From NCBI GenBank assembly GCA_003223395.1, contig QHUZ01000036.1, positions 627 to 64,626 of the forward strand: DNA of 64,000 nt. Reading direction: 5' to 3'. The notes under the pieces were generated by a model, which saw nothing but the letters and a program-made list of their open reading frames with translations, was not told the DNA's origin and did not search any database. This DNA is from Gemmatimonadota bacterium (GTDB taxonomy: Bacteria; Gemmatimonadota; Gemmatimonadetes; Gemmatimonadales; GWC2-71-9). Every line of letters begins with the position of its first letter. Position 1 is the first letter of the stretch. Position numbers and translations under genes: made by a program. Below, one piece after another: positions 26,797-64,000 of this stretch.

Positions 26797-27367
26797 TAGT
26801 AGCGACTACTACTACCTCAGAGATACGCTTAAGGATCTCCTCCTGACGCGCTCGGTCCAGCGCGGCGATTTCGTCCTCGCGTCCGGCCGCCGGTCCTCGT
26901 TCTACGTCGACGCCCGCCGCACCACCATGTCCGGCGAGGGGCTCGCCGTTATCGGCGGGCTCGGGCTCGATCGCCTGGCGGTGCGCGGCTGGTCGCCCCG
27001 GGCCGTCGGCGGTCTCACCCTCGGCGCCGATCCCATCGCGTACGCCCTCGCCCTGACCGCAAAACGGCGCGGCCAGCTGCTGGACGCGTTTACCGTGCGC
27101 AAACAACCGAAGGACCACGGGACCGGCCAGCGCATTGAGGGCTGCTTCGCGTCCGGCTTCGCGGTCGTCGTCGTCGAGGACGTGCTCACCACGGGACGAT
27201 CGGCACGCGAGGCGATCAGCGCCGTCGAGAGCGAAGGCGGGCACGTGCTCGGCGTGCTGGCGGTGCTGGATCGCGACGAAGGCGGCCGCGCGGCGATCGA
27301 ACGGGACGGATATCTCGTCGAAGCGTTTCTGACCGCGGCGGATCTTGGCCTGGGACTCCCCACGTGA
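26789..27367 (+). CDS. pyrE: orotate phosphoribosyltransferase
   Basis: Motifs [16 protein letters not shown] and [17 protein letters not shown]. The only in-frame start near the expected N-terminus is GTG 26789. Confidence 0.85.
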
Positions 27368-45573: not shown

Positions 45574-46426
45574 GGCGGTGGGAAAAGATAGGATTGCACG
45601 ACGGGTTGTGCTATGGACAGCCGCACTCTTTCTGGTGTGGCTGTTCGGCGTTTGGCCGCCACCGATCTGGTGGCGAACTCACGACCCCCGTTGCACGGCG
45701 ATGATGCGGTTACGTGCCGAGGTGCAGACGTGCCGTCGTGCGCCCGGGGAGTCACACGTCGGCATGTCGGCACGAGGGCGCGAGGATTCGCGACTGCTCG
45801 AGCGGATGGTCATCATCGCCGAGGATTCGCGATTCAAAACGCATCACGGGATCGATTTCATTGAAATGCGAGACGCGTGGGCCGCGGGCGGTCACCGCGG
45901 CGCGAGCACGATCACGCAGCAGCTCGCGAAGAACCTCTATCTCTCTCCGTCGCGCTCGATCTTCCGCAAACTGAAAGAAGCCGTGACGGCGGTGCGGCTC
46001 GAGTTGGCGCTCAGCAAGGACCGCATCATGGAGCTGTATCTGGAGAATGCGGAATTAGGGGCTGGGGTTTGGGGAATGGAGACCGCGAGCAGAGCCTACT
46101 TCGGCGTGGCCGTCTCGGCGCTGAGCGCAAATCAGGCCGCGCAACTGGCGGCCACGCTCCCCCAACCCCGAACCTCCAACCCCGCGTTCCGGCCCGCACG
46201 CATGCTTGCCCGGCGAGACTTGATTCTGGCGCGATACTTCGGTGGTGCGACTCCGGTGCCGCCCGCAGAGGAAGACTCGATTCCGATTCCGGTTATTCCG
46301 CCGATCGAGCCGCCAATTCTACCGCCGATACTGGACTCGCTCGTCATTCCGGATACGGTCGCGATCCCAGATACAACAAAGGACCACCCAGACTCGGGTG
46401 GTCCTCGCTTAGTCTACAAGCCGTAG
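45572..46426 (+). CDS. mtgA: monofunctional peptidoglycan glycosyltransferase (GT51)
   Basis: Motifs EDSRFKTHHGID, GASTITQQLAKN and RKLKEAVTAVRLE. Confidence 0.85.
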   Translation: MAVGKDRIARRVVLWTAALFLVWLFGVWPPPIWWRTHDPRCTAMMRLRAEVQTCRRAPGESHVGMSARGREDSRLLERMVIIAEDSRFKTHHGIDFIEMRDAWAAGGHRGASTITQQLAKNLYLSPSRSIFRKLKEAVTAVRLELALSKDRIMELYLENAELGAGVWGMETASRAYFGVAVSALSANQAAQLAATLPQPRTSNPAFRPARMLARRDLILARYFGGATPVPPAEEDSIPIPVIPPIEPPILPPILDSLVIPDTVAIPDTTKDHPDSGGPRLVYKP

Positions 46427-47521
46427 CGGCATCACGAGCGCCATGTAGGAGGCCGGATCGTTCCAGCCGACGGGGTCGATCGTCGCGGCGCGCTCGGGCG
46501 CCTTGAACGTAAAGCGCACTTCGTCGGTCGGCATGTACTTGAGGATCTCCAGCAAGTACATCGCGTTGAAGCCGATCTCGAGCGGCTCGCCCTCGTACGT
46601 CACCGCCAGCTCGTCCTGCGCCTCACCCAGGTCCGGTGTCTGGACCGAGAACTTCACGTTGCCGCCCGAGAACGCGAGGCGAATGCGATGCGTCTGGTCA
46701 CTCGCGACGACGCTCATGCGGCGCAGCGCCGCGGCCATCGCGGCCTTATCGACGGTCGCCTGCTTGTCGTTCTCGCGCGGGATCACCTGCTCGTAGTTCG
46801 GATACGGCCCTTCGATCAGCCGCGAAAAGACCAGCGTGCCGCCGGCGCGGAAGCCGATATGATTGTCACTCTTGGCGAGCTCGATCTCGGCATCGCCGGG
46901 ATAGAGTCGGCGGACCTGCTCGAGCGCTTTGGGTGGAACGATCAGATCGGCGGTGGAGCCGCCAGTCGCGGGCACGTCCATCTTGGCGAGCCGGTGACCG
47001 TTCGTCGCCACCATGCGCATCCGGTCAGGACGCAGCTCCCAGAGGACGCCGTTGAGAATCGGCCGGCTCTCTTCGGTCGATGCCGCGAACGCGACGTGGC
47101 CGACCAGCTTGTGCACCACGCCGGCCGCCGCCTTCCACGCCTTCTCGAACTTCACCGCCGGGAACGAGGGGAATTCTTCGCGTGGCAGGCCGAGCAGTTT
47201 GAACTTCGAGCGTCCTGACTCGATCGAGACGCGTGCCTCGCCGGCGGCGGTTACACGCACCGGACCCGACGGCAGCTCGCGGGCGATGTCCACCAGCTTC
47301 TTCGCGGGTAGCGTCACCGCGCCATCCGCATCCACCTCGGCAGGGACCGTGGTGCTCACCGCGATGTCGAGATCCGTGCCGGAAAGGCGCAACCCGCCGC
47401 CCTGCTTCGAGGCCTCGACCAGGACGTTGGCCAGCACGGGTAGCGTGGTCTTGGCGGGAATGGCTGCCGCCACGGCGGCGAGGCCTTCCTGCAGCTGTTC
47501 TCGCGTGATCGTGAACTTCAT
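46409..47521 (-). CDS. dnaN: DNA polymerase III beta subunit (sliding clamp)
   Basis: 370 aa. MKFTITREQL..., three-domain clamp pattern, C-terminal MPLRL. Confidence 0.97.
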   Translation of the reverse strand: MKFTITREQLQEGLAAVAAAIPAKTTLPVLANVLVEASKQGGGLRLSGTDLDIAVSTTVPAEVDADGAVTLPAKKLVDIARELPSGPVRVTAAGEARVSIESGRSKFKLLGLPREEFPSFPAVKFEKAWKAAAGVVHKLVGHVAFAASTEESRPILNGVLWELRPDRMRMVATNGHRLAKMDVPATGGSTADLIVPPKALEQVRRLYPGDAEIELAKSDNHIGFRAGGTLVFSRLIEGPYPNYEQVIPRENDKQATVDKAAMAAALRRMSVVASDQTHRIRLAFSGGNVKFSVQTPDLGEAQDELAVTYEGEPLEIGFNAMYLLEILKYMPTDEVRFTFKAPERAATIDPVGWNDPASYMALVMPLRLVD

Positions 47522-47761
47522 GCCGGGCGCGTCTTCTCCAAATGGGGAAAGTCTTTACTACTGCTTCTCTATATAGAAATACTAGTAGTAGTAGTAGACA
47601 CCGGGGATATGTGGGCGATGCCGCTAAAGCGCAACCAGTGCATCACCTGCAATCCGTCTCGCAATGTTGGCGCGCTGTTGGGACTGTTGGCGCTTTGCGG
47701 AAATCTGCGTCGTTGTCCCCACAACCCACATCCCACGATGTTTCCCACGCCGCCTTGTTAG
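47522..47761. other. putative replication origin (oriC) in the dnaA-dnaN spacer
   Basis: The 50-nt stretch 47551-47600 has 16 G/C of 50, in a GC-rich genome. It contains nested palindromes and (TAG)5. It is followed by TGTTGG(CGC) repeats and four CCCAC(A/G) motifs, including TTGTCCCCACA. Confidence 0.5.
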
Positions 47762-49153
47762 TTACAATGCGGACAATTCCTGCCGTGCCATCTCCACACG
47801 CTCTTTGAACGTCCGGTCACGCATCATCTGTCGCTCCACTTTGTCCACGCTGTGAATCACCGTGGAGTGGTCCCGGCCGCCGAATGCCTGCCCGATCTCA
47901 ACCAGCTGCATGCCCAGCATGTCGCGCGCCAGGTACATCGCCACCTGGCGGGGGATGGTGAGCGTCTTGGTCCGTGCCTTCGAGCGGAGCCCCTCGGGGG
48001 TCACGCCCCAGCGTCGCGCCACGACTTCCTGCACGCGGTCGATGCTGGGCGCCGACTGGCTGCCGCTCCCGTATCCGGCGCCTTCGTCACCTTGGCGGAT
48101 CTTGTCGGAGAGCGCGTCGCGCGCCAGCTCGATGGTGACCTCGCGGTTCTTCAGCGACGCGAACAGCAGCAGCTTGATGATACAGCCCTCGAGCTCGCGC
48201 ACGCTCGACCGGATGTGCTCGGCGATGAAGCGCAGCACGTCGTCCGGGATCGTGAGCTCGAGATGATCTTGCTCGGCCTTCTTCCGGAGAATGGCGATCC
48301 GGTGCTCGAGATCGGGATGTCCGATGTCCGCGACCATGCCCCACTCGAACCGCGAGATCAGCCGGTCCTCGAGCCCGGGAATTTCCTTGGGCGGCCGGTC
48401 CGAGGTCAGCACGATCTGTTTGTGGGCCTCGAACAGCGCGTTGAAGGTGTGGAAGAACTCCTCCTGCGTCATTTCCTTGCCTTCCAGGAAATGCACGTCG
48501 TCCACGAGGAGCAGATCCACGTCGTTGCGGTAGCGGCGCCGGAACTCGGACATGGTACGCGCGTGAATCGATTCGATCACGTCGTTGATGAACTGTTCGG
48601 CCCCGAAGTACTGCAGCCGGGTCTCGGGGTTTTTCTCGAGCACCGCGTGCGCGATGGCCTGCATCAGGTGCGTCTTGCCGAGTCCCGTCGCGCCGTAAAT
48701 GAAGAGCGGGTTGTACGTCTTGCCCGGCGCCTCGGCGACGGCATGTGCCGCGGCCGCCGCGAGCTCGTTGGACTTGCCGATCACGAACGTCTGGAAACTG
48801 TAGCGTTCGTTGAGCGGTGTGGTCCCGATGTTGGTGGCTGTTGCGACGCCCGCGCTTTCACGCGGCGCGACGAAGAAATCCATTTGGGGGCGCCGCTGCC
48901 GGTCTTCCTGGACGCGGAAGACGACGGTCGTCGGCCTTCCCAACACGCGCTCGGCCACGCGCGCCAATAGCACCGCGTGTTTGGACTCGTTCCACTCCGC
49001 GGCGAACTGATCGGGTGCGCCGAGGATCAGGCGGCCCTCGTCGAGTGCGATGGGCTCCGATGGCTCGAGCCACGTGCGCACCGTCGCCTCGGGAAGTTCA
49101 CGTCGAGCTTCGTCGAGGAGACGCTTCCAAGCTTCGTTGACCGATTGCTCCAT
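47762..49153 (-). CDS. dnaA: chromosomal replication initiator protein DnaA
   Basis: Walker [11 protein letters not shown], box VII and C-terminal DNA-binding domain ([13 protein letters not shown]). Confidence 0.97.
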
Positions 49154-49213
49154 TACGATTTTCTGATTTTAGGAAGGACGTCCAGCAAGGGCGGCCCGAA
49201 AGTACGGGCCCGA

Positions 49214-49222
49214 TGTGGAAAA
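49214..49222. promoter_or_regulatory. DnaA box in the dnaA/rpmH divergent promoter region
   Basis: TGTGGAAAA matches the TGTGGATAA consensus at 8/9. It lies 61 nt upstream of the dnaA start, next to the GTCAAccTTGAC palindrome. Confidence 0.5.
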
Positions 49223-49282
49223 GTCAACCTTGACCGTCGCATCGCACGTCGGGTAACTTTCCCGGCCTTACACGAGGAATTT

Positions 49283-49444
49283 ATGGGTCCGACATATCGG
49301 CCGCGGAATCGGCGGCGTATCAATAAGCATGGTTTCCGCGCGCGGATGAAAACCGTTTGGGGCCGCGCGACGTTATCCCGCCGGCGCAAGAAGGGTCGCA
49401 AGCGTCTCACCGTCCGTATTCCATCCAAACACCGGAGCCGGTAA
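49283..49444 (+). CDS. rpmH: 50S ribosomal protein L34
   Basis: [44 protein letters not shown]. It is the in-frame 3' part of track ORF 48977..49444. Confidence 0.95.
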
Positions 49445-49468
49445 ACGCGCGAACGGTACCCGCGCCGC

Positions 49469-49789
49469 GTGCGCATCACGCGCGGCGCGGAGCTCACCGC
49501 CTGCTGGGAAGCGGGTGGGAGTCGCCGCCGTCGCACACCGCATCTCGATCTGGCCTGGCGTCACAGCACTTTGGGTCACGCGCGTCTTGGACTCATCGTC
49601 CCGCGACATCAGTCGACGGCTGTAGCGCGCAATCGGCTGCGTCGCCGGTTGCGTGAGATCCTGCGCCGCGACGTGCTGCGACACCTTCCCGCCGTCGATC
49701 TCGTGATTCGCGCGAAGCGCTCCGCCTACACCGCCTCGTTTGCAGTGCTGCGCGCCGAATTGACGGGAGCGGTGGAGACGCTGACGTGA
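49469..49789 (+). CDS. rnpA: ribonuclease P protein component
   Basis: Synteny after rpmH. Basic protein with the [10 protein letters not shown] motif. Confidence 0.9.
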
Positions 49790-50013
49790 CGCTGCAACGA
49801 CTGCCGCGTCTGGCCGTAATGACTCTCATTCGCGGCTACCAGCTCACGCTGTCGCATCTGATGCTCACGCAATGCCGGTTCGAGCCGTCGTGCTCGCGCT
49901 ACACGTACGAAGCAGTCGAGCGCTATGGAGCGCTGAAAGGCAGCTGGCTTGGAATCCGACGCATCCTCAAGTGTCATCCGTTCCACGCGGGCGGATATGA
50001 TCCCGTTCCGTGA
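49786..50013 (+). CDS. yidD: membrane protein insertion efficiency factor YidD
   Basis: Sequence [19 protein letters not shown]...[13 protein letters not shown]. Confidence 0.9.
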
Positions 50014-50040
50014 CATGGCAGCGAGACACCGGGCGTAGCC

Positions 50041-51723
50041 GTGGATAAACGCAATCTGCTGATCGCGTTCGTGCTCATGATGATCGTGGCCGTCGCGCCA
50101 TCGCTCATCTGGCCGCCCAAGAAGCCGGTCGGACGGCCGGACGGCCGGACGGCCGACTCCGCGCAGGTTACGCCCAGGGTCGCGGACTCGAACGTCACCG
50201 CCGCTGCGCCGTCCGGCCGTCCGGCCGTCCGACCGTCCGTCGACACAGGTCGCGTCGTTTGGGTGACATCCCCTCTGTATCGCCTGGGCTTCAGCTCAAA
50301 GGGCGCCCGTCTCGTCTCCGCAGAGCTGGTGCAATACCAATCGTTTGCTCCGGGCGATTCCGGCAAGTCGGCGCAGCTCGTGACTCCGGGCGACGCGTTT
50401 CTGCGCCACCGCCTGGTCCTTCCGAGCGGCGACACCGTCTCGCTCGACGATTGGGATTTCCAGCCTAGCCCTGACGCGCCGGGGATCCTGGTAAATGCCG
50501 GGCAGGGCCCAAAGCCGTTGCGCTTCGAAGCCGAGAAGGCCGGCTCGCATGTGACGCTCGAGTACCGCTTCCTGCCCGAGGAGTATCGCTTCGAGGTGAA
50601 CGGCTCGGTGACGGGACTGGGCAGCGGCGGCGCCATCCTGCTGCTCGACCTGGCCGATGGACTTCGTTCCGCCGAGAAGGATTCGGTGGATGACTATCGC
50701 CACTACTCCGTGGTGACGAAGGCGTCCAAGACCGAGCGCACCGACTTCTCCAGCATCAAGCCGGGTGAGCGTGCCGTGCTCAACGGCCCGTTCGAGTGGG
50801 TCGGGGTGAAATCGAAGTACTTCTTCGTTGCCGCGCTCGCGTTGGAGGAAGGGCAGCCCACGTTTGCGGGCGCGATCGCGATCGGCGGTCCGCGCAGCGG
50901 CAAGCAGGCAACGCGCGCCACCGTGCTGGTCACGATGCCGGTGCAGCCTGCCGGCACGTTCCGGTACCAGGTGTTCACCGGTCCGCTCGATTCGCGTCAC
51001 CTGGCGCGGCTCGGCCACGGTCTCGACGATGCCAATCCGTACGGCGGCATCTTCCGGCCGATCATTCAGCCCGTGTCGCAGATCGTGCTCACGGTGCTGT
51101 TGTGGATGCACGAGCGCCTGAATCTGGCCTACGGCTGGGTGCTGATTCTCTTCGGCATCGTCGTCCGCATCCTGCTCTGGCCGCTCAACCAGAAGGCGAT
51201 GGAGTCGGGCATCCGCATGCAGGCGGTCGCCCCGCTCATCAAGGAGACGCAGGACAAGTACAAGAACGAGCCTGAGCGGCTGCAGCGCGAGATGCTGCGC
51301 ATCTACAAGGAGCACAAGGTCAATCCGCTCGGCGGCTGCCTGCCCATGCTGCTCCCGATGCCCGTGTTGCTCGCGCTGTTCTTCGTGTTCGCGAACACGA
51401 TCGCGTTCCGCGGTGTGCCATTCCTGTGGCTGTCGGATTTGTCGCGCCCCGATCCGTTCAAGATCATTCCCATCCTGATGGGTCTGTCGATGTTCGTGCT
51501 GTCCAAGGTCGGCCAGATCGGTGTGCCGCCGAACCCGCAGACCAAGATGATGGTCTACTTCATGCCGATCGTCATGACGCTCTTGTTCCTGAACTTTGCG
51601 TCGGGCTTGAACCTCTACTACGCGGCACAGAATCTCTTCAGCATTCCGCAGCAATACATGATCGCGAAGCGCCGCCTGCGCGAAGCGCCTGTGTCGACTC
51701 CCAAGCCTCCGCCAAAGACCTAG
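50041..51723 (+). CDS. yidC: membrane protein insertase YidC
   Basis: 560 aa with N-terminal TM helix, periplasmic domain and C-terminal 5-TM 60-kDa IMP core (KVNPLGGCLPMLLPMP). Confidence 0.95.
   Translation: MDKRNLLIAFVLMMIVAVAPSLIWPPKKPVGRPDGRTADSAQVTPRVADSNVTAAAPSGRPAVRPSVDTGRVVWVTSPLYRLGFSSKGARLVSAELVQYQSFAPGDSGKSAQLVTPGDAFLRHRLVLPSGDTVSLDDWDFQPSPDAPGILVNAGQGPKPLRFEAEKAGSHVTLEYRFLPEEYRFEVNGSVTGLGSGGAILLLDLADGLRSAEKDSVDDYRHYSVVTKASKTERTDFSSIKPGERAVLNGPFEWVGVKSKYFFVAALALEEGQPTFAGAIAIGGPRSGKQATRATVLVTMPVQPAGTFRYQVFTGPLDSRHLARLGHGLDDANPYGGIFRPIIQPVSQIVLTVLLWMHERLNLAYGWVLILFGIVVRILLWPLNQKAMESGIRMQAVAPLIKETQDKYKNEPERLQREMLRIYKEHKVNPLGGCLPMLLPMPVLLALFFVFANTIAFRGVPFLWLSDLSRPDPFKIIPILMGLSMFVLSKVGQIGVPPNPQTKMMVYFMPIVMTLLFLNFASGLNLYYAAQNLFSIPQQYMIAKRRLREAPVSTPKPPPKT
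50126..50235. repeat. perfect 28-bp inverted repeat built from 8-mer tandem units, inside yidC
   Basis: 50126-50153 (cggtcggacggccggacggccggacggc) is the exact reverse complement of 50208-50235 (gccgtccggccgtccggccgtccgaccg). The spacer is 54 nt. Confidence 0.9.
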
Positions 51724-51724
51724 A

Positions 51725-53035
51725 CTGCTCTCCGACCCCATCGTCGCGCTGGCGACGCCGCCGGGTCGCGGAGCGCTTGCCCTGATTCGCCTGTCGGGCG
51801 CCGGATCGTTCGCCATTGCCGCCCGCTGCCTCGAACCGTTTCATCCGACACCGCCGCGCACCGTGTTCCGCGCGCGACTGTCACATCCCGACTCCCGCGA
51901 GCCGGTAGACGACTGTCTGGCCGCCTGTTTCCCGGCTCCGCATTCCTACACGGGCGACGACCTCGTCGAGATCTCGACGCACGGCGGCCTGGTGGTACCG
52001 GCCGCGGCACTCGCCGCATTCGCCGCCGCCGGGGCGCGCCCAGCGCAGCCGGGCGAGTTCACCCGTCGCGCCGTGCTCAACGGCAAGATGGACTTGCTCC
52101 AGGCCGAGGCCACCGCGGATCTCATCGATGCGGGATCGCCGGCGCAGCGGCGCCGGGCGCTGCACCAGCTCGAGCGTGGCCTGTCCGACCGCCTTGTCGC
52201 ACTCCGCAGCGAAATCCTCGAGCTCGAGGCGCTGATCGCGTACGACATAGACTTTCCGGAGGAGGATGAGGGCCCCGTGTCACCGCAACGCGTGCGTGGT
52301 GCGTGGGAGGTGGTGCGTGGGCGTGTCGCCGATCTGCTTCGCACCGCCCCCGAAGGCGAGCGGCTGCGCGAAGGCGCGTTGCTGGTAATTGCGGGGCGAC
52401 CGAACGCGGGCAAGTCGTCGCTCTTCAACGCACTGCTCGGCACGGAGCGCGCGATCGTCACCGAAATTCCGGGCACGACGCGCGACGCGATCGAAGCCTA
52501 CACCGTGATCGAGGGCTTCCCGTTTCGGATTGTCGATACAGCAGGCTTGCGCGACTCGGGCGAGCGCATCGAGCAGCTCGGCATCGAGGTCAGCAAGAAG
52601 TACCTCGCCGCGGCCGATCTGGTGCTTTTTTGCGAAGAGCGCGACGACCCGTCGCGGGCCGCGTTCCTTGCGCAGGTTAGCGCTCCCGTCGTGGTCGTTC
52701 GCACGAAAGCCGACGTGACGGGCGACGGCGTGTCCGCGGTTACGGGGCGAGGCTTGCCCGAGCTGCGCCGCCGGCTTGCAGAAGTCGCGTTCGGCAAACT
52801 GCTCGCGCTGGGTGACGTCGAGCCCGTCGTCACGCGCGCGCGGCATCGGAGCGCGTTGGAGCGGGCCCTCGTCGAGCTGGATGCGTTTTGGACGGCGCGC
52901 ACGGGCGGCGTGGATGCAGCCGCGACGGCGACCCATCTCCGCGCGGCGGTGCTGGCGCTCGACGAGCTGATTGGCGCGGTTACGCCAGAGGATGTACTCG
53001 ACCGCGTGTTCGCGGCATTTTGCGTGGGGAAGTGA
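51725..53035 (+). CDS. mnmE: tRNA modification GTPase MnmE (start codon non-canonical or uncertain)
   Basis: The conserved N-terminus LSDPIVALATPPGRGALALIRLSG is encoded in frame upstream of the first ATG/GTG/TTG (51863). G-domain GRPNAGKSSLFNAL and C-terminal FCVGK are present. Confidence 0.85.
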   Translation: MLSDPIVALATPPGRGALALIRLSGAGSFAIAARCLEPFHPTPPRTVFRARLSHPDSREPVDDCLAACFPAPHSYTGDDLVEISTHGGLVVPAAALAAFAAAGARPAQPGEFTRRAVLNGKMDLLQAEATADLIDAGSPAQRRRALHQLERGLSDRLVALRSEILELEALIAYDIDFPEEDEGPVSPQRVRGAWEVVRGRVADLLRTAPEGERLREGALLVIAGRPNAGKSSLFNALLGTERAIVTEIPGTTRDAIEAYTVIEGFPFRIVDTAGLRDSGERIEQLGIEVSKKYLAAADLVLFCEERDDPSRAAFLAQVSAPVVVVRTKADVTGDGVSAVTGRGLPELRRRLAEVAFGKLLALGDVEPVVTRARHRSALERALVELDAFWTARTGGVDAAATATHLRAAVLALDELIGAVTPEDVLDRVFAAFCVGK

Positions 53036-54341
53036 GCGCTTCGATCATCGTGCGCGCCTTCGCGAGCGTTTCCTCGTACTCCGCGGCCGGCTCGGAATCC
53101 CATACGATCCCGGCGCCCGCGTGAAAGGTCGCGCTCCCATCCCGTAGCACGATCGTCCGGATCGGAATATTGAAGTCCATCGCGCCGGTGGCAGAGACGT
53201 AGCCGATCGCCCCGCAGTAGAGGCCACGCGGCGCCCGCTCCAGTTCCGCGATGATCTGCATGGCACGAATCTTCGGCGCACCCGTCACCGATCCGCCGGG
53301 GAACGCCGCGCGCAACAAGTCGAACGCGTCGGCTCCATCCCTCAGCTCACCCGTTACCGTCGAGACCAGATGGTGGACCGTGGGGTGCGCCTCGAGCGCG
53401 AACAGCTTCGGGACGCGCACTGATCCTGGGCGGCAGACTTTTCCGAGATCGTTGCGCAGCAGATCCACGATCATGACGTTCTCGGCGCGGTCCTTTTCGC
53501 TCTCCAGGAGCTCGCGCGCCAACCCGGCGTCCGTGACCGCGGTCGTCCCGCGCGGACGCGTTCCCTTGATGGGCCGCGCTTCCGCCGCGCGCGTCATGGC
53601 GTCGAGTCGCAGGAACCGCTCCGGCGAGATGCTCGCGACCTGGGCGCCACCGTACTCGAGATAGGCGCCGAAGGGGGCGGGGTTGCGGGCGCGCAAGCGG
53701 CGATACAGCGCGAGCGCGGAGCCCACGAACGGCGCGTGAAAGCGCTGCGAGAGGTTGACCTGATAGACGTCGCCCGCGGCGATGTACTCACGAATGCGCG
53801 CGACGCCGGCCTCGAACTCAGCGCGCGACACGTTGGAACGCGGCTGCTCGGGCGTCGGGGCGGGATGATCCGGAATGGCGGGCGGCTGGGCCAGGAGCCG
53901 GTCGCGGACCCAGGCCGTGCGTGCGGCTGACCGCTCCCCGTTGCCGGTCGTGATGAGCCAGGCCTTCGCCTCCAGATGATCCCACGCGATCACCCAGTCG
54001 TAGAGGGCGAGCGCGACGTCCGGCAGGTCTGGCGTCAGCCGGTCCGCGGGTGGCCGGACGACCTGCTCCTGCTCGGCACCCCAGTCGTAGCCGATGTAGC
54101 CGGCAATGCCGCCCTGGAACGGTGGTAGGCCGGCGACTGGCGGATGCCGGTGGGTGCGCAACATGTCGCGCGCCGCTTCCGGTGTGCGCGCGACGGCGAC
54201 CGGGTCGGCGGCGAGGAACGAGTACCGGCTCAGCGCGCCTTGCGCCGAGCTATCGAGAAACAGGAGGTAAGGGAGTCCGCTGAAACGAACGCAGGTGCCG
54301 AAAGGGTCGGGAGCGGGAACGAGTGGTAGAACGTGCGTCAC
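52980..54341 (-). CDS. pabB: aminodeoxychorismate synthase component I (chorismate-utilising enzyme family)
   Basis: GTG 54341 gives a GTGA overlap with the upstream gene. Motifs GSVTGAPKIRAMQII, GLYCGAIGY and GAGIVWDS. Confidence 0.75.
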   Translation of the reverse strand: MTHVLPLVPAPDPFGTCVRFSGLPYLLFLDSSAQGALSRYSFLAADPVAVARTPEAARDMLRTHRHPPVAGLPPFQGGIAGYIGYDWGAEQEQVVRPPADRLTPDLPDVALALYDWVIAWDHLEAKAWLITTGNGERSAARTAWVRDRLLAQPPAIPDHPAPTPEQPRSNVSRAEFEAGVARIREYIAAGDVYQVNLSQRFHAPFVGSALALYRRLRARNPAPFGAYLEYGGAQVASISPERFLRLDAMTRAAEARPIKGTRPRGTTAVTDAGLARELLESEKDRAENVMIVDLLRNDLGKVCRPGSVRVPKLFALEAHPTVHHLVSTVTGELRDGADAFDLLRAAFPGGSVTGAPKIRAMQIIAELERAPRGLYCGAIGYVSATGAMDFNIPIRTIVLRDGSATFHAGAGIVWDSEPAAEYEETLAKARTMIEALTSPRKMPRTRGRVHPLA

Positions 54342-54685
54342 GATCCCACGAACTTCTTCGTCGTCCCGCGCAGCGCACTGCCGGCCGGCGGCCGCCAGAG
54401 CGCGGTCTGCTCGATCACCTTTGCGAGCTCCATGTCGCTCGCCGTGACGCCGCCGGCGCTGTGCGTCCAGAGCTTCACCTGCACCTTCCCCCAGCTCACG
54501 GCGAGATCGGGATGATGGTCGGCAGCTTCGGCGAAGAACCCGATCGCGTTGACGAGCATCAGGGTCGTGGGCCAGCCATCGGTCTGGTACTCGCGCACGA
54601 TGGCGCCATCGTCGAGCCGCCACCCGGGCAGGCTCTTCAAACGATCGCCGATTTCGGCGGGCGAAAGCTTAGTCGAGGGTTTCAC
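54338..54685 (-). CDS. 4a-hydroxytetrahydrobiopterin dehydratase (PCD)
   Basis: Sequence LPGWRL...FFAEAADHHPDLAVSWGKVQVKLWTHSAGG. Confidence 0.85.
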   Translation of the reverse strand: MKPSTKLSPAEIGDRLKSLPGWRLDDGAIVREYQTDGWPTTLMLVNAIGFFAEAADHHPDLAVSWGKVQVKLWTHSAGGVTASDMELAKVIEQTALWRPPAGSALRGTTKKFVGS

Positions 54686-55163
54686 GGTAGCTCGCTGACT
54701 GGCCGAAGTTCTCCTCCACCTCCACCTCGATCGCTGTGAGGTGCACGGAGCCGAGCTCGGCGCGGACGCGGCCGGCGAGATACTGCGACAGCATCTCGAC
54801 GGTCGTATTCGGGATGGGCAGGATCACGCAATCGCGTGCGGGGAAGACGTAGCGGGGCTGGCCATCAAATGCCACGCGCACGCTGCCGTTCTCCTCGACG
54901 ATCGTGAGCTTGGGATTGTCGCGCGGCAAGAGGACGCGGTGATCGAGCTCGTCGGTGAGGCGCCGCATCAACTTCTTCACGGCGGCAAAATCGAGGACAA
55001 ACCAGCTGTCCTTCTCGAGCCCGCCCTCCACAATGACGCCGGCGCGATAGTTATGGCCGTGCAGCGTTTCGCAGCGGTGGCCGGCGAAGGTAATGAAATG
55101 CGCCGCCGCGAAGACGAGGTCTTCCTTGGTGATCGCTACCTTGAATTCGCCGCGCGTCGCCAT
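54669..55163 (-). CDS. 6-pyruvoyl-tetrahydropterin synthase / QueD family protein
   Basis: FAAAHFI...CETLHGHNY, i.e. the Cx3HGH motif. Confidence 0.8.
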   Translation of the reverse strand: MATRGEFKVAITKEDLVFAAAHFITFAGHRCETLHGHNYRAGVIVEGGLEKDSWFVLDFAAVKKLMRRLTDELDHRVLLPRDNPKLTIVEENGSVRVAFDGQPRYVFPARDCVILPIPNTTVEMLSQYLAGRVRAELGSVHLTAIEVEVEENFGQSASYRETLD

Positions 55164-55172
55164 TCCGGTAAT

Positions 55173-55403
55173 CTACTCGGGCGGACTCGCCTCGCCTGTC
55201 GACAGCCGCCACACCTCATCCGCCAGCCATTCCAGCCGCTGCTGGGCATAGTCGAGTTCCGCCGGCGTCATGGTCTTGGCGCGCCGAGCGATTTCCCGCG
55301 TATGGCTGAGGAGTTCGTCCAGGACCTCCCGCAGCGGCCGATTGTGGCGGCGCTCCGGGACACGCGACATCGGGGAAGCGGGCTTCTTGCCGCGGGGGCT
55401 CAC
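55173..55403 (-). CDS. hypothetical small protein (76 aa)
   Basis: 4-nt overlap with the upstream DUF2268-like gene. No recognisable domain. Confidence 0.45.
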   Translation of the reverse strand: MSPRGKKPASPMSRVPERRHNRPLREVLDELLSHTREIARRAKTMTPAELDYAQQRLEWLADEVWRLSTGEASPPE

Positions 55404-56350
55404 GCCGTTTGGATACCCGAGGCCCGATCATCTGCCTGCCGCAGCTCTTCGACCGCGGCCCGTACCGTGGACGGGGCGCCATGCTCGGCGAAGTAATTCT
55501 CGACCAGGCGGAGACCGAGGTAATAGCCGGAGCGCTCGGGGAGCACCTTCCCTGCCAGCAGCCGGGCCGCCGGGCTCATGCCGCCGGACAGGTAGCGCAG
55601 CCGCAGACCCAGGCCCGTCGAGTCGAGGTCGGTGGCGGACGCCCGCCGCAGGAAGGCGTCGAGCTCGCGCAGCCGGCGGTATTGGCGGCGGTTGTAACCG
55701 AAGTACTCCCACGGCTCGAAGCCGGGCGCGACCGCCTGGGATGCGGCGATCGCGGCGCCCTCGTTGACGACGAGCTCGCGCAACGTCGCGCGCGAGCCGA
55801 TTTCCCAGCTGTCGTAGTACCCGCCTCCACCCAACTCCCCGACGAGACGGCGCATCGCGGCGCGGCTCGAGGGAGAGGTGTACCGCAGCGCGTGGGCGAC
55901 TTCATGCGCGATCCACAGCGGCAGCAGCTCGGGCGCGAGCCCCATGCCGTACGTCTGCGCGTTGGCGCGACCGGTGAAATGCTCCAGGCAGACGAACGCG
56001 ATGCCGCGCCCGCCCACCACCAGCTCGCCGGCATTGGCGGCGCCGACGCCGACCATGAGGTAGAGGTCCACCGGACAATCGGCCTCGAGCATGTCGGTCG
56101 CGCGGCGCAGCGCGTCTTCGGCCACGGCGACCACATCCACGTCTTCGAGCAAACGTTTGAGATCGGCGCGCTCCGCACGCAGCGCCGTCGCGATGATCGG
56201 CTCGGCGTGGGGCGACTCCGGATCGAGCACATAATTCTGCCAATACGCGCTCAACACGGGACGATGGCGATCGAGATACTCGTGGTACGCCGCGGAGGGA
56301 TCTGGCGCGGCCAGCGTTGCGAGGAACTCCGGAACGAGATTGACGAGCAT
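55400..56350 (-). CDS. DUF2268-like putative zinc-dependent protease
   Basis: HEVAH motif (WIAHEVAHALRY). Confidence 0.65.
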   Translation of the reverse strand: MLVNLVPEFLATLAAPDPSAAYHEYLDRHRPVLSAYWQNYVLDPESPHAEPIIATALRAERADLKRLLEDVDVVAVAEDALRRATDMLEADCPVDLYLMVGVGAANAGELVVGGRGIAFVCLEHFTGRANAQTYGMGLAPELLPLWIAHEVAHALRYTSPSSRAAMRRLVGELGGGGYYDSWEIGSRATLRELVVNEGAAIAASQAVAPGFEPWEYFGYNRRQYRRLRELDAFLRRASATDLDSTGLGLRLRYLSGGMSPAARLLAGKVLPERSGYYLGLRLVENYFAEHGAPSTVRAAVEELRQADDRASGIQTA

Positions 56351-56425
56351 TGCGCTGGTTGCCGCCCAATTTGGGAAGGCACTCAGCGGATATCAATGTC
56401 GCCTGTTATCGACTCTGACTTGACA

Positions 56426-57277
56426 CTACGCCTTTGGTGGCGTACGCAACCGGCGGCTGATTTCGGTGAGAAACTTGCGCTCGGCCGGTGTCAGACTGTC
56501 GACGCCGCTCGCGATGATCTTGTCGAGCACGCGATCGATCTCGGCGTTGGCGCGGGCGTCGGGGTTACTGCGCGATTTCGGCGCTCGAGCGGAGGGAGGG
56601 ATCGCCCCGCTGCGGCTGACACGCGGCGGCTGCGACACCAGCACACTCGATTCCGACCGTTGCCGCCCACTCCGCTCGCCGCGTGTCGCGCGCCAGTCCT
56701 GCCCTTTCAGAAAGAGCAGCGCAGTACCCACACCGCCGAGGTGGGCGAGGTGCGCGATGCCGTCAGTCACACCGAGCAGCGCGATCACGAGATCGAGCCC
56801 GACCAGGAACGTGACGAGCCATTTCGCCGGAATCGGATCCGGCAGCGGAAAGACGAACAGCGGATGATCGGGCCAGTACCAGGCGAACGCCACGGCGACG
56901 CCCAACACGGCGCCCGATGCGCCGAGTACCTGCGGGACCACCACGGCCTGCGTCAGTGGGAACGACGCGACCGCGCCACCGAGGCCGCACAGCAGGTAGA
57001 AGAGAATAAACAGTCGGCCGCCCATGTGTTCTTCCACGGATGAGCCGAACACGAACAGCATGAGCATGTTGAACGCGAGGTGCAGAATCCCCGCGTGCAT
57101 GAACATGTACGTGATGAACGTCCAGGGTTGCTTCCAGGCGTCCAGGGGAGCAAACGCCAGTGCCTTCGTGAGCGTCCCGTCGACGAACAGCGTGTTCTGG
57201 ACGAGAAACACGAGTAGGTTGGCGACGAGCAGTCGCCTCACCCATGGAGTCAAACCGTACATCCGCTGCGGGCCCAT
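56426..57277 (-). CDS. rhomboid family intramembrane serine protease
   Basis: GASGAVLGV (catalytic Ser) and AHLAHLGG (catalytic His). Multi-TM. Confidence 0.85.
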   Translation of the reverse strand: MGPQRMYGLTPWVRRLLVANLLVFLVQNTLFVDGTLTKALAFAPLDAWKQPWTFITYMFMHAGILHLAFNMLMLFVFGSSVEEHMGGRLFILFYLLCGLGGAVASFPLTQAVVVPQVLGASGAVLGVAVAFAWYWPDHPLFVFPLPDPIPAKWLVTFLVGLDLVIALLGVTDGIAHLAHLGGVGTALLFLKGQDWRATRGERSGRQRSESSVLVSQPPRVSRSGAIPPSARAPKSRSNPDARANAEIDRVLDKIIASGVDSLTPAERKFLTEISRRLRTPPKA

Positions 57278-57324
57278 CGATTCTCCTACGTGTCCTTTAG
57301 GGCGTCTGGTTTTAATCCCCCCTA

Positions 57325-58332
57325 TCAGGCCCTGTTGTTCCGGGCCAGGCTTGCGATACGGTCACACAGCTCGGGAAAGGGGATCCCCGCCGCCTGCGCG
57401 GCCTGAGGGAACAGACTTGTGCGGGTCATTCCCGGCAGGGAGTTCGCTTCAAGACAGAAGATGTCCCCCTCGGGACTCACCCGGAAGTCGATCCGTGAGT
57501 AGCCGCTGAGCTTCAAAGCGCGGTGCGCCATCAGCGCATACTCCTGCAATTGTCGGGCTAGCATCGTATCGATCTTCGCGGGGAAGGTCTCTTCCGACAT
57601 TCCGGGTGTGTATTTCGTCACATAGTCGAACAACTCGTGCTTGGAAACGATCTCGCCGACAGGCAGCGGCACGTCTCCCAGGATGCCTACCGTCAGCTCA
57701 CGACCCGCAATGAACTGTTCAGCCATCACCTCATCGTCATAGCGTTCCGCCAGTTTGACCGCATTGTCCAAGTCCTGGGCTTTCTTGACCAGGGTCAGTC
57801 CAACGGACGAGCCCTGCTTGGACGGTTTGACGATCACCGGCCACCCGAGCGCAGTGGTCACGTCTTCCGCCCCAACCGGGGCCATGAACCAGGCGGGCAC
57901 CGGCACACCAGCCGCGCGGAACAACCGTTTGGACAGGTCCTTGTCCATCGCCAGCGCGCTGGCGAGCGGTCCGCTGCCCGTATACGGCACCCCGATCACG
58001 TCGAGCACGGCTTGCAGGGTGCCGCCTTCCAGGGCGCCACCGTGCACCGCGAGGAAGAGCACCTCGGCATTCCGCACCGCCTCGAGCTCACCAAGCTGCT
58101 CCGACAGCATCCGCCGCTCGCGTTCGGCCAAGGCGTCCACGCTCGGCGGTGTGAGGCCGACGTCGCCACCGAGCAGCTCACGCTCGCCGCGCTCGTCCAG
58201 GGGGCCGCCGGCGAGGTCTACGACCTGGACGTCGTGCTTGCGGCTGCGGAGCGCGGCGACGATCTGGGAGGCGCTTGCGAATGCGACGGCGCGCTCCGCC
58301 GTGGCGCCACCGGTGAGCACCGCGATTCGCAT
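57325..58332 (-). CDS. ddl: D-alanine--D-alanine ligase
   Basis: ATP-grasp pattern with FLAVHGGALEGGTLQ, VIVKPSKQGSSVG and LEANSLPGMT. Confidence 0.95.
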   Translation of the reverse strand: MRIAVLTGGATAERAVAFASASQIVAALRSRKHDVQVVDLAGGPLDERGERELLGGDVGLTPPSVDALAERERRMLSEQLGELEAVRNAEVLFLAVHGGALEGGTLQAVLDVIGVPYTGSGPLASALAMDKDLSKRLFRAAGVPVPAWFMAPVGAEDVTTALGWPVIVKPSKQGSSVGLTLVKKAQDLDNAVKLAERYDDEVMAEQFIAGRELTVGILGDVPLPVGEIVSKHELFDYVTKYTPGMSEETFPAKIDTMLARQLQEYALMAHRALKLSGYSRIDFRVSPEGDIFCLEANSLPGMTRTSLFPQAAQAAGIPFPELCDRIASLARNNRA

Positions 58333-59717
58333 CAGCGGATGCCCGCCAGCTGGTGCAGCAGATCGTAGCGCGTGACGATGCCCATGACCTTGCCGTTGCG
58401 TCGCACCAGCGCGGCCGGCGTCGTGCGCGACAGCAGGGTGGTGAGCAGCGCGACGGGCGACTCGCTGTCTACGACCGGAAACGGCGGGTCCATGACGTCC
58501 CGTATCGCGCTGTCGAGAATCTTCGGCTGGCCGATCGCGCGGGCCATCAGCGCCTGCTCGGAAATGGCGCCCACGCCGTCAGCGCCGTCCAGCACGGGCA
58601 GCTGGGACACGTTGTAAGTCGACATGAGATTGAGCGCCTGGCGCACGGACGCCTCGGGCGCCACATGGATCAGCGCCGGCGCGTCGCCCGTCTTAGCGGC
58701 CACGAGCCGGCCCACCGTCAGCCGCTCGTCGTCGATCAACTGGTTCTCGCGCAGCCATTCCTCGTTGTAGACCTTGCTGAGGTACCGCTCGCCGGTATCC
58801 GCGAGCACGGTGACGACGAGCGCCTTGGGATCGTCGATCTGGCGCGCTACGTCCAGCGCCGCGACGACATTGACGCCCGTCGATCCGCCCACGAACAGCC
58901 CCTCTTCCCTGGACAGGCGGCGTGCCATCTGCATCGCGTCCTTGTCGCTCACGACCACCCATTCGTCGATGACGTCCCAGTGCAGCGACGTCGGAATCTT
59001 GTCGCCGCCGATACCTTCGACTTTGTATGGCGCCCCATCGTGCTGCTGGCGGGTCTTCGCGTAGTCCGTATAGATCGATCCGACGGGATCGCCCGCGACG
59101 ACACGAATCTTGGGGTTCTGCTCTTTCAGGTATTTCCCGGCGCCGCTCACGGTACCACCGGTACCCGGTGCGCAGACGAAATGCGTGACCTTGCCCTCGG
59201 TCTGCTCCCAGATCTCCGGTCCCGTCGTGTGATAGTGCACGTCGGGGTTCACCGGGTTGTAGTGCTGGTCGGCGAAAATCGCGTTCTCGTGCGCCGCCGC
59301 GATGGCGCGGCCTTTCATGATGTAGTTGTCGGGGTGGTCGGGCGGCACGGCGGTGGGGGTGATGATGACCTCGGCACCAAGGGCGCGCAGCAGCCGAGCC
59401 TTCTCCTGCGACATCTTGTCCGGCATGGTGAAGATGCAGCGGTAGCCTTTCACCGCCGCCGCGAGCGCCAACCCCACGCCGGTATTGCCCGACGTCGCTT
59501 CGACGATCAAACCGCCGGGCTTGAGTTTCCCCGCGCGCTCCGCCGCCTCGATCATCGCCAGTCCGATGCGGTCCTTGACCGACCCACCGGGATTGAAGAA
59601 CTCCGCCTTCGCAAATACCGGCGTGCGGATCCCGCGCGCGACCTTGTTGATCCGGATCAGTGGGGTCCAGCCGATCGTCTCGAGGACGTTGGCGTACGGC
59701 TTAATGTGCTGTGGCAC
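58332..59717 (-). CDS. cystathionine beta-synthase (PLP domain + tandem CBS domains)
   Basis: Motifs NPGGSVKDR, SGNTG and GTGGT, with a C-terminal CBS pair. Confidence 0.9.
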   Translation of the reverse strand: MPQHIKPYANVLETIGWTPLIRINKVARGIRTPVFAKAEFFNPGGSVKDRIGLAMIEAAERAGKLKPGGLIVEATSGNTGVGLALAAAVKGYRCIFTMPDKMSQEKARLLRALGAEVIITPTAVPPDHPDNYIMKGRAIAAAHENAIFADQHYNPVNPDVHYHTTGPEIWEQTEGKVTHFVCAPGTGGTVSGAGKYLKEQNPKIRVVAGDPVGSIYTDYAKTRQQHDGAPYKVEGIGGDKIPTSLHWDVIDEWVVVSDKDAMQMARRLSREEGLFVGGSTGVNVVAALDVARQIDDPKALVVTVLADTGERYLSKVYNEEWLRENQLIDDERLTVGRLVAAKTGDAPALIHVAPEASVRQALNLMSTYNVSQLPVLDGADGVGAISEQALMARAIGQPKILDSAIRDVMDPPFPVVDSESPVALLTTLLSRTTPAALVRRNGKVMGIVTRYDLLHQLAGIR

Positions 59718-60306
59718 TCGTGTCCGGGCGCGCCTTGGTGGTATCCGCAGGTGGATGGGTGGTATCGGCTGGCGCGGGGCGAACCCGAGTCGTATCTGCC
59801 CGCGTGGTGTCGGGCTGGACGACCGGCGGACGGGGTCTGGGTCTCGCGGGTGGCGCGGGGGGCGGCGTCGGCGCGAGGGTCGGTGGCAGCGTCACGGTGC
59901 CCGTGCGCGTCGTACCCACCTGGCGGAATTCCACGGGCTGCAGGAACGCGGTCGCCACCGCGACGCCGTGCCGCTTCGCTGGCGCAAACCGCAGCGCCGT
60001 CGAGCCGGCGAGCGCGGCTGAGTCGAGCACCGGATAGCCGCTCGGTTCCGCAACACGCGTGGATTCCGGGATGAGCTTGCCGGTGGAATCGACGAACAGC
60101 CGCAGCGTCACGTCGCCTTCGACTTTCCGATCGAACAGCGCCGCCGGATACGCGATTGGGGCGTCGGGATTGAGCGCGACCGGCGCTTCCGACTCGGGTG
60201 GCGGCGCGGCCTGGCTCGTCTGCCCATCGGGCTGCCGCGATCCGCCGCGGCAGGCCGTCAGTCCGAACGCCACGAGCAACAGCGATCGCACGTCAGGAGC
60301 CTCCAT
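59701..60306 (-). CDS. TonB C-terminal-domain lipoprotein with Pro-rich ADTT-repeat tail
   Basis: Lipobox FGLTAC. YPAALFDRKVEGDVTLRLFVDSTGK...VLDSAALAGSTALRFAPA. Tail is PPPAPPARPRPRPP...ADTTR/H/K repeats. Confidence 0.7.
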   Translation of the reverse strand: MEAPDVRSLLLVAFGLTACRGGSRQPDGQTSQAAPPPESEAPVALNPDAPIAYPAALFDRKVEGDVTLRLFVDSTGKLIPESTRVAEPSGYPVLDSAALAGSTALRFAPAKRHGVAVATAFLQPVEFRQVGTTRTGTVTLPPTLAPTPPPAPPARPRPRPPVVQPDTTRADTTRVRPAPADTTHPPADTTKARPDTSATAH

Positions 60307-62902: not shown

Positions 62903-63768
62903 GGCTCATCCACCACGAAGGGCTGCCCGCCGACCCTTTGCTTCAGGCGTGTCTGCGCGCGCTGCGCTTCCTCGCGCGTGGCGTAGCGGCCGACGCGGAC
63001 TTTGAAGAAGCCGGTCGAATCCCGCACGACGCGCGCTTCGAACCCCATCACCTTCAGGCGCGTGAGCATGTCATCGACTTGCGCGGCACTCTTCACGGCG
63101 AGCACCTGCACCGCGTAGGCGCGTGACGCCGCCGGAGGCTGAACCTTCGCGCCGGTATCAGTAGGTGGCGCCGTCGTTGTGTTGGTCGTTGTCGCAGTCG
63201 CCGGAGGGCTGCAGCGCGCCGCGTAGAAGCTGACCTGATTCTTGAATTCGACGTCGTCACCCGCGCCGTCCTGCGCTTGCCGGATCAGCTCACACCCGCG
63301 CGCCTCGTTTTTCAGCTCGAAGTACGCGCGGCCACCGTAGAAGCTCGCGCGCGGCCGCAGCGGCGAGTCCGGGTAATCACGATTCAATCGTTCGGCGGCC
63401 TGGACGGTTTGCGCGGGATCGTGTTGGGCGAAGTAGAGCTGCGTGAGCAGCAGGAGCGCGTCATCGGCCCACGGACCGGCGCCGTATTCCACGACGATGC
63501 GATTGAGATTGGAGGCCACCGTCGGCGCATCCGGCGCCATCTTCGCGGCCGCGAGGAGTGCTTGCGGAAACACCGAATCGCCGGGCGAGAGCGTCGCGAG
63601 CAACCGGCGCACGATGGCGCGGCCGGAATCGACCTGGCCCGACTGCGCCAAACGGAGCGCTTCGATGAGGCGAGCGTCTGTCTGGGCGGAAAGAGGGAAT
63701 GTTGGAATGATGGAAAGAAGTACGACAAACACTCCTACATTCCATCGTTCCATCATTCCGAGTTTCAA
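62899..63768 (-). CDS. SPOR domain protein with TPR-like N-terminal region
   Basis: C-terminal SPOR domain (YAVQVLAVKS...FKVRVGRYATREEAQRAQTRL). Confidence 0.8.
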   Translation of the reverse strand: MKLGMMERWNVGVFVVLLSIIPTFPLSAQTDARLIEALRLAQSGQVDSGRAIVRRLLATLSPGDSVFPQALLAAAKMAPDAPTVASNLNRIVVEYGAGPWADDALLLLTQLYFAQHDPAQTVQAAERLNRDYPDSPLRPRASFYGGRAYFELKNEARGCELIRQAQDGAGDDVEFKNQVSFYAARCSPPATATTTNTTTAPPTDTGAKVQPPAASRAYAVQVLAVKSAAQVDDMLTRLKVMGFEARVVRDSTGFFKVRVGRYATREEAQRAQTRLKQRVGGQPFVVDEP

Positions 63769-64000
63769 GCCGCCTCCCGATTCAGCTTCGCGAATCCCAG
63801 GACCAATTGCGTGATGATCCCTCGGTCGTCGCTCACGGTTGCCGTCTTCAATGCGTTATCGGCCGCGAGCGCGGCGCGGAGGGCCCGGCCCAGCTCACGG
63901 GTGGTCCAGAGTCCGCTCCACGCGGTCCAGCGAGCAGCTTCCTCTTTATAGCTGCGCATACCATACGGACGGACGCTCTGCATCTGCCGGTAGATCGTGT
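63765..64000 (-). CDS. C-terminal part of a gene running off the window end, possibly DNA polymerase III delta subunit
   Basis: The open frame continues to the window edge. The tail ...LGRALRAALAADNALKTATVSDDRGIITQLVLGF resembles a HolA C-terminus. Weak call. Confidence 0.35.
   Translation of the reverse strand, partial: TIYRQMQSVRPYGMRSYKEEAARWTAWSGLWTTRELGRALRAALAADNALKTATVSDDRGIITQLVLGFAKLNREAA

Follow-up and report, generated by a model that had tools for sequence, protein, structure and literature searches.

The incC region of the Bacillus subtilis origin consists of DnaA boxes #6 and #7, a GC cluster, a series of DnaA-trios and an AT-rich 27-mer (Pelliciari 2021, 2023). In this region the sequence 5′-CTACTATTACTTCTACTA-3′ is the complement of the trios, and the boxes lie on its 5′ side. 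The same oriC unwinding system is reportedly also to be credited to the work of Richardson from 2016 and 2019. In a cryo-EM structure of the B. subtilis complex, residues N187, I190, K222, E223 and R264 of DnaA serve in trio reading and filament building. The published definition of such a system (BUS) comprises a DnaA box with at most two mismatches to TTATCCACA or to a species-specific box, a spacer of no more than 16 bp (with a peak at 10–13 bp) and at least three trios with a central A, 3′-GAT-5′ being the preferred form; the published tables put the complement of the box and the trios on one strand. A BUS has been predicted in 85% of 2070 origins; in the published data the short gap just before the first trio averages 4 bp. 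One of these predictions concerns G. aurantiaca T-27, a member of the order to which the organism studied here belongs (DoriC ORI97017024; Pelliciari et al. 2021, supplementary table): its boxes are TTGTACACA and AGTCCACA, with 2 and 3 mismatches, respectively, followed by four trios, GAC GAC GAT GAT. For Listeria, the same table lists a 9-mer and an 8-mer box, a gap of 4 bp and a spacer of 12 bp.

We analysed a window of 64,000 nucleotides (the whole stretch of DNA under study), which lies on contig C78 of a draft Gemmatimonadales assembly of 123 contigs and 3.41 Mb. The spacer between dnaA and dnaN occupies positions 47522–47761; it is 240 bp long and has a GC content of 54%, vs 66% for the genome. 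Both neighbouring genes lie on the minus strand. The dnaA gene (47762–49153) encodes a 463-aa protein with domains I, III and IV (Pfam Bac_DnaA, 3.6e-70; Bac_DnaA_C, 1.7e-27; DnaA_N), which scores 512 bits against TIGR00362 and for which the best-matching PDB entry is 8BTG, the BUS complex of B. subtilis DnaA (E-value 3.6e-120), while dnaN (46409–47521) encodes a beta clamp of 370 aa with all three DNA_pol3_beta domains of Pfam. The minus-strand GGAGA at 47535–47539 is the ribosome-binding site of dnaN. To the right of dnaA, rpmH (about 49284–49445, read from the sequence, with no Pfam match), rnpA (49469–49789) and yidC (50041–51723), both assigned by Pfam, are found on the plus strand together with yidD. 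The gene order rpmH<>dnaA-dnaN, from which the original prediction had argued for an origin in this spacer, is thus borne out by Pfam and, for rpmH, by the sequence, and every motif that it listed was found in place when the sequence was re-read. An Rfam search of positions 46000–50500 returned nothing relevant.

Read on the minus strand from dnaA towards dnaN, the spacer contains two abutting variants of the DnaA box (TCGCCCACA and ATATCCCCG), a 4-bp gap, (CTA)5 and a 19-bp AT-rich core, with dnaN further on. In its dnaN-proximal half, this strand of the spacer reads 5′-TCGCCCACA, TATCCCCG, GTGT, CTA CTA CTA CTA CTA GTA TTT CTA, TATAGAGAAG, CAGTAGTAA, ..GGAGA..ATG. Box 1 (47610–47618, minus strand) has three mismatches to TTATCCACA and two to the high-GC form TTGTCCACA. 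The word at these positions, TGTGGGCGA, adjoins the TAG run; it is a fifth box, absent from the list of the original prediction, and functionally the most telling of the boxes in the spacer. Box 2 (ATATCCCCG, 47602–47610, minus strand), which points the same way as box 1 and shares one base with it, likewise has three mismatches to TTATCCACA. The sequence between box 2 and the first trio (47598–47601, 4 bp) takes the position of the ‘GC cluster’. The trio array itself (47574–47597, plus strand) starts with (TAG)5 at 47583–47597 and goes on with TAC, AAA and TAG, so that eight triplets in a row have A at their centre, five in the consensus form 3′-GAT-5′, followed by CAT, AAA and GAT. The end of box 1 is 12 nt from the first trio. 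What had been described as the end of a palindrome, (TAG)5, is instead a DnaA-trio array at 12 nt from a co-oriented box. DnaA-trios are sites at which DnaA binds single-stranded DNA, and a placement of this kind is also found in B. subtilis, in C. difficile and in the published prediction for G. aurantiaca.

The AT-rich core at 47564–47582, a candidate DNA unwinding element, has 26% GC and falls within the lowest-GC 50-mer of the window. It holds the perfect palindrome TCTATATAGA (47568–47577) and overlaps the three distal trio-like triplets. There are 16 G/C among the 50 positions 47551–47600, and the lowest-GC 50-mers of the window begin at 47547–47549 (15 of 50). Genome-wide, about 21 loci have 16 or fewer G/C per 50 bp, so the AT-rich stretch of the spacer, being among them, is notable, not unique.

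The features of the spacer go beyond chance expectation. (CTA)5, or (TAG)5 on the other strand, occurs once in the 3.41-Mb assembly (0.0005 occurrences expected), and even (CTA)4 is found only once. A search for CCACA followed, after 2–16 nt, by (CTA)3 with at most one mismatch gave a single match in 3.41 Mb, at the dnaA–dnaN spacer. Other trio-like runs of the genome were considered and set aside, as they seem to be located inside coding sequence (Tyr-Tyr-Tyr codons) or have no box. The same rare triplets are also present elsewhere in the window, in a perfect 9-bp hairpin, TAGTAGTAG-CGA-CTACTACTA (26797–26817), which directly follows the TGA of a gene ending at 26796, stands just before a phosphoribosyltransferase-like frame and has no DnaA box nearby.

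Judged on sequence, the locus appears to combine the features by which a BUS is recognised: the neighbourhood of dnaA, a 12-bp spacer, trios, the polarity of box and trios, an AT-rich element and the DnaA residues concerned. We put the probability at about 0.85 that the 240-bp dnaA–dnaN spacer is the DNA-opening part of oriC, of the B. subtilis type, and we infer that DnaA binding, DNA opening and helicase loading take place here. As each of the two platform boxes has three mismatches, the published search rule, which allows two, would narrowly miss the module.

The likeness to B. subtilis extends to the location in the dnaA–dnaN spacer, the two co-oriented boxes, the short gap, the trios opposite the dnaA coding strand, the AT-rich element beside dnaN, the coding strand that reads 5′-CTACTA..-3′ and the retention of the trio-reading residues of DnaA. 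Unlike in B. subtilis, both boxes are degenerate (CCCACA and TCCCCG cores), the trios are perfect five-fold GAT repeats instead of a mixture of GAT, AAT and GAA, the AT-rich core is about 19 bp long compared to a 27-mer, DciA is present, and a single box stands upstream of dnaA, in the place of the box-rich incA/B region of B. subtilis. With G. aurantiaca T-27 the module shares the 9-mer box, the abutting 8-mer box, the 4-bp gap and the 12-bp spacer; it differs in having three mismatches in each of the two boxes and five consensus trios. The oriC2 of C. difficile is also placed in the dnaA–dnaN spacer and has a trio run, 5′-CACCTACTACTATTACTACTATGA-3′, upstream of the experimentally mapped unwinding region (Front Microbiol 2020); its polarity agrees with that of the locus. 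C. difficile differs in its low GC content, in its canonical boxes and in a bipartite origin that, in vitro, depends on oriC1 to melt. Finally, the TTGTCCACA origins of actinobacteria (Mycobacterium, Streptomyces) resemble the locus in high GC content, in location in the dnaA–dnaN spacer and in a G at box position 3, whereas position 4 of the box is C here and not T, and the module here is compact. Actinobacterial dnaA–dnaN origins carry many more boxes.

The comparison with the spacers of relatives, which the original prediction had proposed as a check, revealed the module across the order, at the same spacing in most spacers. All 29 relatives, from three families, that yielded both genes have the dnaA–dnaN synteny, and nearly all of the spacers concerned show the module. 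With 80 further Gemmatimonadales loci added, the set comprised 98 distinct spacers, 93 of them with a recognisable trio array; in 76 of these 93, the distance from the end of box 1 to the first trio is exactly 12 nt. The core of box 1 reads CCCACA in 52 cases, CCAACA in 10, TCCACA in 7 and TCAACA in 3, and the box 1 of our window fits the clade consensus YCSCCCACA derived from 78 spacers. In sister families canonical boxes occupy the place of box 1 (ATATCCACA in locus L027, TCGTCCACA in L028). At the position of box 2, TWTCC is nearly invariant, and GATCCACA or ATCCACA is aligned with it in families f2 and f3. Textbook modules are seen in the sister families, for example TATCCACA GATCCACA TGCC CTACTACTACTAC and TCGTCCACA ATCCACA CCTTT CTACTACTTCTACTAG.

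Within the genus, the most conserved block in an alignment of 18 species is CCCACATATCCCC..TCT(A/G)CTACTACTACTAGTA, comprising CCCACATATCCCC and five triplets. The number of trio repeats is constant across the 18 species while the flanks diverge, and in this fixed number the array is unlike a neutral microsatellite. TATATAG of the core is also kept in the genus, and an AT-rich stretch follows the trios in all families. In one near-complete genome of the same genus (G011), the dnaA gene (C1:228754–230139, L019) contains one in-frame TGA and has 82% identity, compared to 97% for dnaN; an error of assembly or damage to this copy may be the reason.

The remaining repeats of the spacer are arranged in two families. 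Three direct repeats of TGTTGG, at 47665, 47676 and 47685 (TGTTGGCGC occurs twice, 20 bp apart), correspond on the minus strand to weak DnaA boxes whose core is CCAACA; all three share the orientation of box 1 (47665–47693, spacing 11 and 9 bp). At the dnaA-proximal end (47713–47751), CCCAC(A/G) forms the core of four words that resemble boxes; they are on the plus strand and point the opposite way from boxes 1 and 2. The first is inside TTGTCCCCACA (47713–47723), and the four cores fall within 47718–47748. In the genus alignment the CAACA cores of the former are invariant, the same columns reading CCCACA in G018, G005, G007 and G013, and the GTGGG cores of the latter are invariant or nearly so. 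Since CCCACA, CCAACA and TCCACA interchange at aligned positions among relatives, both families of repeats are, to judge by these alignments, degenerate DnaA boxes in two orientations. A further degenerate box-like word, TTTCCCCAT (47542–47550, minus strand), is located downstream of the core and shows C/T variation within the genus; near its position, relatives with 88–91% DnaA identity, as well as L024 and L027, have a clear co-oriented TCCACA or CCCACA. In the density of YCCACR the spacer ties for the genome maximum, with 7 per 250 bp vs about 0.65 expected.

Upstream of dnaA, a near-consensus box, TTTTCCACA (49214–49222, minus strand), can be read in the divergent rpmH–dnaA region. It was the only one seen in these 130 bp when a second box cluster upstream of dnaA, as in a bipartite oriC, was looked for, and it probably has a role in dnaA autoregulation, outside the unwinding module. 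Canonical boxes are found elsewhere in the genome too, namely in two intergenic clusters on contigs C24 and C70. The C24 cluster (C24:13990–14245, L175:2990–3245) consists of the near-consensus boxes TGTGGATAC, TTTTCCACA, TTGTCCACTATCCACAG, TGTGGAAAA and others, without trios; it is located between aroB and a gene for a 297-aa protein of the sigma-70 family, upstream of the latter, and is probably a DnaA-regulated promoter or a titration site.

The original prediction took the lack of canonical 9-mer boxes in the spacer as a sign either that the sequence recognised by DnaA has diverged or that another initiator-binding repeat is used. The DnaA protein gives no indication of this. A 19-residue stretch of domain IV, which we take to be the box-contacting one as in the E. 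coli complex, is nearly invariant across the order, including families with canonical TCCACA boxes; together with the interchange of cores and the canonical boxes in the genome itself, this leaves a changed specificity unsupported. Co-variation of the T-to-C change at box position 4 with domain IV was considered and rejected, the contact region being alike in TCCACA and CCCACA lineages. No other initiator gene was seen beside the spacer with Pfam. Residues N190, I193, K226, E227 and R268 of DnaA align with N187, I190, K222, E223 and R264 of the B. subtilis protein.

The genome also encodes a 655-aa protein (C79:71788–73755, L177:1288–3255) with two tandem DnaA-type AAA+ (domain III) modules, which are 42% and 39% identical to DnaA. 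Its Walker A/B motifs and arginine fingers are intact, and it has no Pfam match to DnaA domain I or IV; paired matches to the two modules were found in most of the 31 Gemmatimonadales genomes searched. Scoring 518 bits against an NCBIfam DnaA cut-off of 344, it would probably be mislabelled as DnaA by annotation pipelines. It may be a duplicated DnaA regulator of the Hda kind.

By analogy with B. subtilis, ATP-DnaA would bind the two abutting co-oriented boxes (47602–47618) via domain IV, and from this platform the AAA+ domains would oligomerise onto the adjacent plus strand, each protomer capturing one 3′-GAT-5′ trio (47583–47597, with three looser triplets beyond). The filament would then stretch the plus strand and open the AT-rich core at 47564–47582, after which the replicative helicase would be loaded, presumably with DciA, which is encoded in the genome. 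The CCAACA and CCCAC words towards dnaA may act as low-affinity boxes that feed or regulate the DnaA oligomer.

The palindrome TCTATATAGA is flanked by TACTACT (47556–47562) and AGTAGTA (47584–47590). The former belongs to an inverted arm, across the core from the trio run and complementary to it (47555–47564; plus strand TTACTACTGC, minus strand GCAGTAGTAA), which was also recovered as the inverted repeats I1, I6 and I14. Of the 92 spacers in which this feature was analysed, 80% have a word of the TAGTA/AGTAG type downstream of the core and 60% contain a complement of at least 6 nt; the longest complement averages 6.2 nt vs 3.8 nt in shuffled sequences. In many relatives a third co-oriented DnaA box comes after the arm. 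The arm may be part of the dnaN promoter or leader.

We also considered an inverted second BUS that would use the arm together with TTTGGAGAA, which has two mismatches to TGTGGATAA and is 12 nt from the TAA/TAG arm. This candidate was rejected, because conservation within the genus is limited to GGAGA (the ribosome-binding site), and the bases before it, TG included, vary from species to species. In addition, the box of the arm is wrongly oriented for a mirror-image BUS, and reversal of boxes 6 and 7 inactivates the B. subtilis origin. A different and unlikely idea is that the Gemmatimonadales, which are of the DciA type and may be devoid of DnaD, have a mirrored feature beyond the BUS: a trio-like run on the opposite strand, across the core (coding strand 5′-..CAG TAG TAA-3′, 47555–47564), would be engaged by DnaA or a partner so that both strands are held open. 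If true, this would bear on the loading of the second helicase.

The position of the origin was further approached by nucleotide skew, another check put forward in the original prediction. GC skew inside the window alone is uninformative, and gene-orientation bias on the genome's own contigs is too noisy to locate an origin. In two sister families the skew flips at dnaA. In G027 (family f2), 21 of 22 10-kb windows to the left of dnaA are negative and 10 of 10 to the right are positive, with the flip in the window of dnaA itself; the cumulative minimum (1,191,140) is about 0.4 kb from the dnaA start (1,191,514). In G020 (family f3), the skew is negative for about 340 kb, approximately zero over the 40 kb before dnaA and then positive, and the cumulative minimum is separated from dnaA by about 1.1 kb and from the spacer by about 2.5 kb. 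The expected switch at dnaA is seen in these two genomes, while in the window's own lineage the skew is weak, with minima 16–155 kb from dnaA on either side. In G014, a genome of the same genus, the skew stays below zero over 200 kb towards dnaN, is flat across some 40 kb and then becomes positive (minimum 16 kb from dnaA). The minima of G031 and G032 (91% and 89% DnaA identity) are 46 and 47 kb away, and that of G011, at 70.6 kb within the sampled 30–430 kb, is 155 kb away; the switch points obtained for G011 from skew, from k-mer strand asymmetry and from a crude count of gene orientations were broad or conflicting (70, 185 and 170–250 kb). When the contigs of our genome were ordered by synteny with G011, the skew was negative on the whole dnaN side and approximately zero for about 100 kb on the rpmH side, with two near-equal minima, at the spacer and at the box cluster of contig C70. 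Relative to the sister families, this genus has weak GC skew and a weak replication-related bias in gene orientation; over the 17 kb to the right of mnmE (53000–64000 of the window, and on C78 up to 70388) almost all genes lie on the minus strand, head-on to a fork coming from the proposed origin. We conclude that the origin is in the neighbourhood of dnaA, and that its exact site within the genus rests on the module and not on skew.

The C70 cluster raises the question whether the true origin is elsewhere near dnaA, the spacer being a relic or a regulatory site. In this intergenic cluster (C70:21620–21710, L176:3120–3210), which is some 150 kb off by synteny and close to a gene for a plsB-like acyltransferase, five to six canonical boxes of the TCCACA type are packed into 100 bp. 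The cluster is kept in G011 at about 74.1 kb, 3.6 kb from the skew minimum of that genome, and on our own contigs the cumulative skew is slightly lower at the cluster than at the spacer. The cluster, however, has neither a trio array nor an AT-rich element, and it is absent in families f2 and f3, being missing beside the homologous gene in G020 and G019. In G031 there is no box cluster at the skew minimum, and the only cluster in 400 kb is the dnaA–dnaN spacer; the skew of G014 turns positive within 16 kb of dnaA; and the minima of the lineage scatter to both sides of dnaA, as noise would give. Extra DnaA-box clusters outside oriC are normal in bacteria (for example, in B. subtilis, or datA/DARS of E. 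coli), which also counts against an origin at C70. We consider such an origin improbable, and the C70 and C24 clusters look like ordinary DnaA regulatory or titration sites.

The elements of the spacer could alternatively serve mainly in the control of dnaN transcription, with the boxes as operators and the palindrome as a promoter or as the site of a dimeric regulator, while replication starts elsewhere. Transcription of dnaN requires a promoter or must read through from dnaA; the stretch 35–60 nt before the start of the gene contains TCTATATAGA and the conserved block GAAGCAGTAGTAAAGAC, and a box-like word lies between the core and the ribosome-binding site. Yet a scan of positions 47300–49500 found no sigma-70-type promoter, and a terminator scan of the same region yielded a single weak candidate on the non-coding strand, a result within what shuffled sequences give. 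An operator role also leaves unaccounted for a five-fold 3-nt repeat kept at a fixed 12 nt from a co-oriented box in 76 of 93 spacers. The two roles are compatible, the B. subtilis origin also being situated just upstream of dnaN, and we regard dnaN control in place of an origin as very improbable. Nested inverted repeats around 47551–47601 and the recurrence of the arm in relatives would fit the alternative of the original prediction, a cruciform- or hairpin-extruding origin or a non-DnaA initiator that reads the TGTTGG or CCCAC repeats. This alternative is hardly credible: single-strand hairpins are no stabler than those of shuffled sequences (–6.3 and –5.2 kcal/mol, z –1.3 and –0.8; two relatives gave z –2.4 and –0.3), canonical DnaA-box cores take the place of the repeats, and vice versa, among relatives, and Pfam revealed no other initiator gene beside the spacer.

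The proposal of an oriC in the dnaA–dnaN spacer is thus supported by anatomy, by order-wide conservation and by the skew switches at dnaA in relatives. The unwinding module is genuine, well-formed, conserved and of a known kind, its sole departure being that both platform boxes are degenerate, and the current picture of bacterial initiation is unchanged by it. A perfect DnaA-trio array can flag an origin although the degeneracy of both boxes would hide it from standard origin finders. The module marks the likely start of replication in a large group of uncultured Gemmatimonadales from soil, which aids genome orientation, growth-rate estimates from read depth and annotation.
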